NCBI GenBank assembly: GCA_002347815.1
Contig: DDXV01000016.1
Coordinates: forward strand, 3,909 to 67,908
DNA: 64,000 bases
Source of the DNA: Syntrophaceae bacterium UBA2251
Lineage (GTDB): Bacteria; Desulfobacterota; Syntrophia; Syntrophales; UBA2251
Direction of reading: 5' to 3'
Positions 49,901-51,029 of this stretch are shown in pieces. The number at the start of each line of letters is the position of its first letter. The first letter of the stretch is position 1. The notes below the pieces were generated by a model. It ran no database searches and had not been told where the DNA came from. It saw only the letters and a program-made list of their open reading frames with translations. The translations under genes were made by a program, and so were the position numbers.

Positions 49901-50768
49901 GATCCCCGTCCCCGTCGGGCGGAAACACGGAGATGGAACCCGGGAGAAGATCTCCCGGCGCCGACCGCTTCCGGAACGCCTCGTCGAGGTTCCGCGCCTT
50001 CAGCTCCCACCGGATCCGGCGCCAGTCCTCCGGATCGGGCAGGAAAAAGGAGATCTGGATCCCCGCCGAATCCCGTCCGCGCACCTCCAGGCGGTCGAGA
50101 CCGTTCAGAAGGAAGTTCAGGTAGTGGAGCTTGTGAAACGCGGCCACGTCGACGTCCCGGCCCGAACCGGCCAGGGCCGCAATCTGCCCGACATTCTCCA
50201 GGACGTCCTTTTCCAGGGACCACACCGCATCCTTGAGGGACACCAGCCGGCTGTTGACGATCTCCAGGGTCTCCGTCCGGAACCGTCCGGCGGCATCCTC
50301 CAGCAGGCGCTCCTCATCAGCCAGGAACGCCTTCAGATCCGCGACCAGCCGGTTCAGAGCCTGGACGCGATCCGGATCAAAAAAAAGCGCCTGAAAGAAG
50401 CGCGTTTCCTTCAAGCGCCGGACAAGCGGCTCCAGACCGGCCGGGCTCTGACCATCGGGTCCGCGATCGCCCGCCTCCGGCGCCAGATATTCCCCCGGGC
50501 TTACGCTTCCTTCGAGAACCGCTTCAAGCCCGTTGCGCTTCAGCTCGAGCGCGATCCGCGTCAAGCGCGGCAGGACGTCCCGGCCGGGGGAGCGAGCATC
50601 GTCCTCCGGCGGTTCGGGCGAACGAATCGCCAGGATGCCGGCAAAACCGCAGAAAAAAACCCCGTTGAAAACGGGGAGGAGGATGATGGCGGGGGCGGAA
50701 ACGCCTTGGGGATTTCGTCCGACATAAACGCGCCACGCCTTGAGCCGGCGAACGATACGGGTGATCAA
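46947..50768 (-). CDS. Giant GlmS-like protein: class-II (Ntn) glutamine amidotransferase with a ~170-aa insertion, two SIS domains and a ~380-aa C-terminal extension
   Basis: [11 protein letters not shown] (Ntn-Cys motif) ... [21 protein letters not shown] ... [18 protein letters not shown] ... [13 protein letters not shown] are present. The SIS domains read [17 protein letters not shown] and [26 protein letters not shown]. The start is uncertain. A TTG at 50768 behind GGAGGG was chosen, which gives a ~39-aa propeptide. The ORF is open to 51014. Confidence 0.75.
50653..50676 (-). terminator. Canonical intrinsic-terminator-like hairpin plus U7 immediately 5' of the Ntn-Cys codon
   Basis: The minus-sense sequence is CCCCGUU-UUC-AACGGGG followed by UUUUUUU, then C, then UGC (Cys codon at 50651-50649). 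It lies inside the open reading frame of the giant amidotransferase. Confidence 0.5.
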
Positions 50769-51029
50769 CGCGAGTCCCTCCGTCCTTTCATTTCCGGCCG
50801 CTTTGCGGAACACGGCCGTCAGCGAATCTTTGGATCCAGCAAAGCAAGACACGTACCACTCGCACACGCAAACCCGCCGTGACGGGCGGCGCGGCCGGAG
50901 GTGGAGCGCCCCTTGCGGCCACCGTTTCGTGGCCCTGTCTTGAAAGCGGGAAATCAAGGCCGGAGGCGGGGTGTGCCCGAAACGAAATTGTCCCTCCCGG
51001 GACGGGCACGACAAAAATGTATCCCCCCT

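Follow-up and report, generated by a model that had tools for sequence, protein, structure and literature searches.

In Escherichia coli, 3' ends located inside open reading frames (ORFs), including those made by intrinsic terminators, are common (PMC7815308). Terminators lying within the initial ~100 bp of an ORF are efficient, as the leading ribosome has yet to reach the polymerase, those located further into the ORF are repressed by a closely trailing ribosome (PMC4824070), and tight coupling prevents the terminator hairpin from forming (PMC5021804). In the pyrBI operon, the attenuator is located inside the 135-bp leader ORF, pyrL (PMC4824070), at roughly 100-135 nt from its start, where a coupled ribosome blocks the hairpin and an uncoupled polymerase terminates (PMC4824070, PMC5021804). 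Here we analyzed a 64,000-nt stretch of DNA from Syntrophaceae bacterium UBA2251 (GenBank assembly GCA_002347815.1, contig DDXV01000016.1, forward-strand positions 3,909 to 67,908; hereafter the window, in which all positions are given) and describe two terminator-like hairpins, hairpin 1 and hairpin 2, located within the first 130 codons of a giant gene encoding a 1273-aa GlmS-like class-II amidotransferase. The reading that we favor, and hold tentatively at somewhat less than even confidence, is that they are tandem, translation-gated intragenic attenuators.

The likeness to pyrBI lies in the location of a terminator-like element within a translated ORF at a similar distance from its start (the U-tract of hairpin 1 ends 115 nt past the first base of the TTG start codon) and in the presence of a pyrimidine gene downstream, here pyrG. 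Unlike in pyrBI, there is no separate short leader ORF: the terminator-like elements are located in the structural gene's own N-terminus, in an ORF that runs for 1273 codons, two hairpins occur in tandem, and no UTP-sensitive pause region or regulatory logic was identified; UTP sensing of the pyrBI kind would also have the wrong sign for a CTP synthase. With no separate leader ORF present and no pause or antiterminator element found, the locus is, as judged from its sequence, not a member of the leader-peptide attenuator family. In Bacillus subtilis and Lactococcus lactis, pyrG itself is controlled by a leader attenuator that relies on CTP-sensitive reiterative transcription. The present locus resembles it in having a terminator-like element upstream of pyrG with a C/U-rich 5' arm, and differs in that the "leader" would be a 3.8-kb gene. 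Also similar in arrangement are the ORF-internal terminators of E. coli detected by Term-seq, with narY and rsxC assayed in vitro, in which a coding-sequence hairpin followed by a U-tract can end uncoupled transcripts (PMC7815308, PMC5021804, PMC4824070). Those were established by measured 3' ends or in vitro assays, whereas the evidence here consists of sequence and comparison only, to which synonymous constraint and clustering at the 5' end of the gene are added. The principle of an intragenic terminator or attenuator is already established, and what is new is the setting.

Hairpins followed by U-tracts in the 5' coding region

Hairpin 1 is located at positions 50653..50676 on the minus strand, where CCCCGTT-TTC-AACGGGG (50676-50660) is followed by T7 (50659-50653), a single C (50652) and the TGC codon (50651-50649) of Cys40, the predicted class-II (N-terminal nucleophile, Ntn) amidotransferase nucleophile, whose column is invariant in an alignment of 50 sequences. 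Both the hairpin and the cysteine codon are in frame with the ORF spanning 46947..51014, the minus-strand context reading CTC CCC GTT TTC AAC GGG GTT TTT TTC TGC GGT TTT GCC GGC ATC CTG, in which hairpin 1 occupies codons 31-39 of the gene (L-P-V-F-N-G-V-F-F) and the cysteine opens the motif CGFAGIL. The codons directly before the cysteine are GGG GTT TTT TTC, and no ATG, GTG or TTG adjoins it. An earlier reading of the sequence (the preliminary description) had reported a perfect terminator motif before the cysteine codon, with no adjoining start, and had called the T7 run unusual at this G+C content; it was right on both counts, including the coordinates and the frame. The window has a G+C content of 64% and contains six T-runs of at least 7 nt (both strands counted), two of which are located within the first 390 nt of the giant gene.

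The stem of hairpin 1 comprises 7 bp, five of which are G-C pairs, closed by a 3-nt loop, and folds at -10.2 kcal/mol (z = -4.35), none of 200 shuffled sequences being as stable. When the whole 64 kb was searched on both strands for perfect stems (5 bp or longer) with a T-run of 5 nt or more behind them, hairpin 1 was the sole case, and its sequence occurs once in the window. Hairpin 1 is not expected by chance. Using a terminator scan, we found hairpin 2 in the same ORF ~250 nt downstream (50379..50419, minus strand, codons 117-130), where GGCGCUUGAAGGAA-ACGCGC-UUCUUUCAGGCGCU forms a 14-pair stem (including 3 G.U pairs) with a 6-nt loop, followed by U8, for a folding energy of -20.6 kcal/mol (z = -3.78). 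The U7 and U8 tracts directly abut the stems of hairpins 1 and 2, as in an intrinsic terminator. In contrast to a terminator located past a stop codon at the end of a transcription unit, both hairpins lie inside the ORF 46947-50768, and hairpin 1 has the position of an attenuator, namely within a translated ORF and near its start, translation being backed by the family-wide protein conservation described below.

The terminator scan also returned a weaker third motif, GGGGATCCAGATCTCC followed by T5 (50044..50064, minus strand), which is probably not significant; its T-run is only T4 in some of the close relatives introduced below (L081 and the 95% strain group, position 50044). In a census requiring a stem of at least 6 bp and 6 or more T among the 8 nt that follow, four sites were found in 128 kb (both strands), three of which (50676, 50419 and 50064) fall within the first 720 nt of the giant gene; shuffled windows yielded 0.43 census sites per window. 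The fourth site (40875-40856, minus strand) consists of CCCGTGTCACGTGATGCGGG then CTTTTTAT and straddles the 3' end of the ORF 40862..43771. By its position, it looks like an ordinary terminator, which suggests that the organism uses such signals. The same scan performed on homologous loci yielded 3 matches in 260 kb, with no enrichment of terminator-like motifs in the 5' regions of these loci.

Conservation of the hairpins and their possible roles

Close relatives were recovered through the adjacent upstream gene, yielding contigs in which this gene is 99% (L081), 77% (L083) or 68% (L084-L086) identical, together with ten further assemblies (L088-L097) that form a strain group at ~95% nucleotide identity. 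One more relative (protein P0255, locus L087) was recovered by a search with the N-terminal 140 aa, over which it is 63% identical, and carries a fragment of the upstream gene that is 72% identical. The hairpin 1 motif, CCCCGTTTTCAACGGGGTTTTTTTCTGC, is exact in 13 of 13 assemblies representing four lineages, all within a narrow Syntrophales clade. L087 has 73% nucleotide identity to the window over 621 nt; the longest stretch without a difference (41 nt, CTCCCCGTTTTCAACGGGGTTTTTTTCTGCGGTTTTGCCGG) is found at hairpin 1, and the second and third longest (20 nt each) are the two halves of hairpin 2. L083 does not differ from the window in the final 10 codons ahead of its contig end, against 16 differing codons among the 30 preceding ones; the longest run of identical codons in the 416-codon neighboring gene is 8. 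Hairpin 2 is kept in all lineages at -15.8 to -21.0 kcal/mol, in every case with U8 after the stem: the 95% strain group has a C-to-U change that gives a G.U pair, along with a loop change (-19.3 kcal/mol), L087 has lost the two top pairs (-16.2 kcal/mol), and a G-to-A change breaks one pair in L081 (-15.8 kcal/mol).

Synonymous differences were then counted inside and outside of the motifs, the motif codons (31-39 and 117-130) having been fixed beforehand from the coordinates of the terminator scan. Between the window and L087 they amount to 1/21 inside the motifs versus 45/111 outside (one-sided Fisher test, p = 0.0007), and between the window and L083 to 0/9 versus 9/23 (p = 0.03). The conserved motif codons are rare in the gene (GTT accounts for 15% of Val, GGT for 7% of Gly and TTT for 37% of Phe), so the pattern is not accounted for by selection for preferred codons. 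The alignment of homologs that the preliminary description had proposed as a check on the motif gave a divided answer: the coding extension is conserved, synonymous variation through the hairpin is absent in close relatives, and the motif is lost in distant ones.

If the hairpins are attenuators, a narrow Syntrophales clade would have written two terminator-like elements into coding sequence by means of the rare codons GTT, TTT, GGT and CTT, and would hold both of them constant at synonymous sites. RNA polymerase arriving at the U-tracts without a close ribosome would let the hairpins form and would stop transcription early, the cause being either poor initiation at the TTG or an uncoupling of transcription from translation; with a TTG start that is not promptly used, the transcript would be aborted at hairpin 1 or at hairpin 2. 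A coupled leading ribosome would instead cover the hairpin arms, and the polymerase would read into the enzyme gene and the overlapping pyrG. In a more specific form, to which we give little credence, the coding region of the N-terminal pro-segment would be a leaderless tandem ribosome-gated attenuator, the first 130 codons licensing a sigma-54-driven operon that includes the enzyme and CTP synthase, and U7 and U8 might add UTP sensitivity. Should the hairpins terminate uncoupled polymerase, they would represent a natural regulatory RNA structure inside a conserved N-terminal coding sequence, kept by selection at synonymous sites. Attenuation control would then be written into a structural gene by synonymous codon choice, which would inform on how transcription-translation coupling is used outside model organisms, here in syntrophic digester anaerobes.

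Several observations weigh against attenuation. A hairpin and T-run just before the cysteine was found in 0 of 74 homologous loci from distant species, and the 68% relatives have LFPLLPATLCCGLAG at the cysteine site and no hairpin; given this absence elsewhere in the family, hairpin 1 is, to go by these comparisons, dispensable for the basic function of the gene. The broken pair in L081 shows hairpin 2 to be imperfectly kept. The test of synonymous constraint draws on about four lineages, of which L083 and L087 are sisters, which reduces it to roughly one long branch, and both motifs are located in the best-conserved segments of the protein, where synonymous rates may drop for other reasons. 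Hairpin 2 is located past the zone in which efficient uncoupled termination is expected, and premature termination would carry a cost, producing non-stop mRNA and reducing the expression of pyrG downstream. Finally, no conserved antiterminator or pause element was found at the locus, the sole candidate pairing (GGAGG with CCUCC) being unconserved in L083 and L087.

The main rival, a serious one that we consider possible without thinking it likely, is that the hairpins and T-runs are a neutral by-product, accidents of Phe-rich conserved peptides that are normally translated through, their identity among relatives coming from limited sampling and protein constraint. An in-frame T7 or T8 necessarily encodes Phe-Phe, FF is frequent at the second site in homologs (RRIFF, LFF, FFF), and TTT accounts for 37% of the Phe codons of the giant gene; the lack of the motif in the 74 other species and in the 68% relatives and the stem mismatch tolerated by L081 point the same way, and the window was chosen by an oddity-seeking reader. 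Against neutrality, the codon choices that produce the 7-bp stem and the T7 given the peptide have a probability of ~4e-4 (from the codon frequencies of the gene), two or three sites cluster in 720 nt versus one in the rest of the 128 kb, synonymous change is depleted in both motifs, and the conserved codons are rare, contrary to what selection for codon optimality would give.

The same conservation would also be accounted for by a function other than attenuation, an explanation that we regard as unlikely: the hairpins could be pause sites (allowing the ribosome to catch up, or timing the folding or self-cleavage of the pro-segment), 3' ends and Hfq-binding modules of a small regulatory RNA (sRNA) transcribed from the sigma-54-type promoter, or hairpins involved in mRNA stability or protein binding. 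E. coli is known to have sRNAs with terminator-type 3' ends that are ORF-internal or 5'-derived (PMC7815308), and the identical run at hairpin 1 extends 15 nt beyond the U-tract (CTGCGGTTTTGCCGG), which a terminator alone leaves unexplained. RNAalifold proposed an outer helix (CCGC/GCGG) enclosing hairpin 1; a larger structure of this kind shows no covariation, as there is no variation, and the helix was not retained. Matches to Rfam are likewise lacking, both in the window and in 50300-51100, and a hairpin directly followed by U7 or U8 is the canonical signature of a terminator.

The N-terminal extension and the amidotransferase family

The ORF contains a TTG codon (50768-50766) located 7 nt after a Shine-Dalgarno sequence, GGAGGG (50776..50781, minus strand), and translation from this TTG gives a 39-codon extension before the cysteine (50652..50768). 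Across homologs, the extension follows the motif W[KR]I.[VI]G..P......[AS].I..FP......CG[LF]AG, with Pro32, Cys40, Gly41 and Gly44 invariant and Gly17 nearly so in the 50-sequence alignment, and its conservation is also found at the DNA level in the 74 species-representative loci. All homologs that reach the cysteine have an in-frame extension of 17-100 residues, except for P0111, which starts with MCG and fits a Met at the variable pre-cysteine position, as in L045. The start of the extension in the window aligns with the starts of homologs such as P0042, L083 and L087 have kept the TTG and, ahead of it, a G-rich Shine-Dalgarno sequence (GGGAGGG and GGGGGGA, respectively), and the same TTG was chosen by independent gene callers in L081 (on a contig 99% identical to the window), L090 and L094, yielding 1273 aa. 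The NCBI entry for P0255 begins with MIIRIIRRL. In close relatives, codons 1-30 show 9 synonymous versus 7 non-synonymous substitutions, and in the AlphaFold2 (AF2) model residues 1-39 form a helix and two strands, with a block-mean pLDDT of 76-91 over residues 1-40. The 39 codons before the cysteine are best read, from this conservation, as a translated and conserved pro-segment. The TTG at 50768 behind GGAGGG, put forward in the preliminary description as the nearest plausible start of a ~39-aa propeptide, is thus upheld by conservation and gene calls; for annotation, the absence of a start codon beside the catalytic cysteine is normal for this family, and the correct start is the TTG at 50768.

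In class-II amidotransferases, the nucleophile is an N-terminal cysteine (PMC7948480), and PurF-type precursors process themselves (PMC3207474). The protein shares with the PurF precursor (MEROPS C44, self-processing) an in-frame extension before a cysteine that must become residue 1 (PMC3207474, PMC7948480), and the conservation of this extension is what is expected of an Ntn precursor. By analogy, the pro-segment is presumably removed by self-processing. The residue preceding the cysteine varies freely across the family, which fits intramolecular cleavage and not a sequence-specific protease. The propeptide of B. subtilis PurF comprises 11 residues, and that of glutamate synthase GltB about 36-42. 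Unlike PurF and GltB propeptides, the extension described here is longer, shows strong conservation of its motif and is modeled as structured, and its host enzyme is an uncharacterized protein of ~1250 aa that is neither PurF, GltB nor GlmS.

Annotated starts are inconsistent among strains. In other strain assemblies, the gene start was called 8-15 codons upstream of the TTG; in the 95% strain group (L088-L097), the GTG at 50813, 15 codons ahead of the TTG, is replaced by ATG, and the gene calls of this group mostly give 1288 aa rather than 1273. The 5' untranslated region (UTR) of L092 contains a 1-nt insertion at ~50789. Sequestration of the Shine-Dalgarno sequence by pairing of GGAGG with CCUCC (50685-50681) is present in the minimum free energy fold and was rejected as a candidate, since CCUCC is CCUGC in L083 and L087.

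The gene (46947..50768, minus strand) was assigned to GlmS-like class-II amidotransferases, with a glutamine amidotransferase (GATase) domain and SIS domains, from Pfam matches (GATase_6, GATase_7 and SIS) and from the fold, the best Foldseek matches of the AF2 model being glutaminase domains of GFAT/GlmS and PurF. In the 50-sequence alignment, the glutaminase motifs HTRWAS, NGD.DN and TDT show little or no variation. The protein is not a true GlmS equivalog: TIGR01135 gives 228 bits versus a cutoff of 418, with a match that begins at model position 58. Between CGFAGIL and the remaining glutaminase fold are ~180 extra, mostly helical residues (model residues ~50-230), and the protein is twice as long as GlmS, with an extra, unassigned C-terminal region of ~330 aa. 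Homologs were collected by a search with the first 500 residues, yielding proteins from metagenome-assembled genomes (MAGs) of Syntrophales and Desulfobacterales with a best identity of 50%; orthologs span ~1190-1240 aa after the cysteine. At least 593 stretches encoding a relative were found in a collection of species-representative genomes, and the best 80 of these, to which the locus counts below refer, come nearly all from MAGs of Syntrophales/Desulfobacterales type. The giant GlmS-like family is widespread in these MAGs and appears to be uncharacterized.

A search with the giant protein itself yielded only fragments of at most 870 aa and missed the 99%-identical full-length protein of contig L081. 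Long proteins seem to be irretrievable from the protein database used, and close relatives may be hidden for this reason. An antisense mirror ORF of 1306 codons (46962-50882, plus strand) is annotated in place of the giant gene in L093 and L096; these calls are a high-GC annotation artifact.

The upstream spacer, minor alternatives and gene neighborhood

The spacer between the upstream gene and the giant gene contains a putative sigma-54-type promoter, TGGTACGTGTCTTGCT (50843..50858, minus strand), located ~75 nt upstream of the start codon. It reads TGGTACG-N4-TTGCT, which agrees with the -24/-12 consensus TGGCAC-N5-TTGC and its GG-N10-GC spacing, and is the sole match in the window versus 0.04 expected. 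TGGTACG-N4-CTTGC is invariant in the window, L083 and L087, in which the remainder of the spacer has diverged, and sigma-54-type elements were also found upstream of the ortholog in L006, L008 and L013. From this location, transcription would start near 50832 and leave a 5' UTR of ~64 nt, so that most of the 260-nt leader discussed in the preliminary description would be promoter-upstream DNA. The clade with the two hairpins is also the clade with the promoter-bearing spacer, and gene calls leave only 4-40 nt between the two genes in the next-nearest relatives. Reiterative transcription of the pyrG type was considered and set aside, since the window, L083 and L087 share no GGGC-type start or G-run past the sigma-54-type promoter. 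Just past the upstream stop codon, a conserved element with invariant blocks, TTTTTGTCGT...GACAATTTCGT (50982..51017, minus strand), forms an inverted repeat (TTGTC/GACAA) around a variable hairpin and may be a site for an activator or enhancer-binding protein, or else the 3' hairpin of the upstream gene.

From the three options offered by the preliminary description, a translated pro-segment carrying an attenuator melted by ribosomes survives, given the conserved motif, the depleted synonymous change and the second hairpin, and the other two fell away. One of these, in which hairpin 1 terminates the upstream GlmU-like gene and polymerase merely reads through it, is very unlikely. Hairpin 1 is on the same strand as that gene and downstream of it, and the L083 contig covers the upstream genes and ends 4 nt after U7; yet the stop codon of that gene is 354 nt away from hairpin 1, which is itself part of the next ORF, the interval contains the conserved sigma-54-type promoter, the genes of the 68% relatives are called 4-40 nt apart without a terminator, and a second similar element is found even deeper in the ORF.

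The other, a riboswitch-like 5' leader that ends in hairpin 1, with translation starting non-canonically at the cysteine or immediately before it, is more improbable again: it would explain why no canonical start codon adjoins the cysteine, but the 39 upstream codons are conserved as protein in homologs and are rich in synonymous changes over codons 1-30, the TTG and its Shine-Dalgarno sequence are conserved, and most of the spacer is located upstream of the sigma-54-type promoter and would fall outside its transcript. A search of the whole window against Rfam gave 0 matches at the gathering threshold, and in the 801 nt from 50300 to 51100 the sole match at E-values up to 1 was a chance one (E = 0.96). 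The leader hairpins listed in the preliminary description are present in the sequence but say little, since A-to-C changes (positions 50930 and 50927) disrupt the GGCCAC-GAAACG-GTGGCC stem in the 99% and 95% relatives and the folding of the entire 5' region is unremarkable (z = +0.95). Just as improbable is a role for T7 and T8, in a sugar-biosynthesis gene, as switches for phase variation (by strand slippage) or as sites of programmed frameshifting: the tracts are in the 5' coding region and provide slippery heptamers (U UUU UUC and U UUU UUU) in the correct frame, but T7 does not vary in length among the 13 independent assemblies, nor T8 among those checked, runs of this size are short for slippage, the conserved stems would be left without an explanation, and for frameshifting there is no stimulatory structure downstream and no conserved -1 frame, which stops after ~45 codons in the window and runs on in L087 (hand translation).

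Downstream of the hairpins, pyrG (CTP synthase; 45343..46950, minus strand) follows the giant gene, an order found in ~20 of the 80 loci, and its ATG overlaps the TGA of the giant gene (ATGA, 46947-46950). By this overlap, pyrG appears to be translationally coupled to the 3.8-kb hairpin-bearing gene and transcribed through it. Upstream is a gene with similarity to the C-terminal part of GlmU, annotated as 'UDP-GlcNAc pyrophosphorylase' (51030..52289, minus strand); about two dozen of the 80 loci have such a gene ahead of the giant gene. The L083 sequence is a Logan contig (SRR12762322; 2850-2877) that spans the upstream genes and the spacer, and its end would be direct 3'-end evidence if SRR12762322 were an RNA library; no mention of the library type was found in the literature. 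Beyond the upstream gene, the region 52329-55455 (minus strand) encodes a small Fis-type HTH_8 protein, a bacterial PH-domain protein and MoaC, a neighborhood conserved in L081 and L084-L097. In this neighborhood, related loci also have a ChlI/ComM-like AAA+ gene on the opposite strand, with faint matches to Sigma54_activat.

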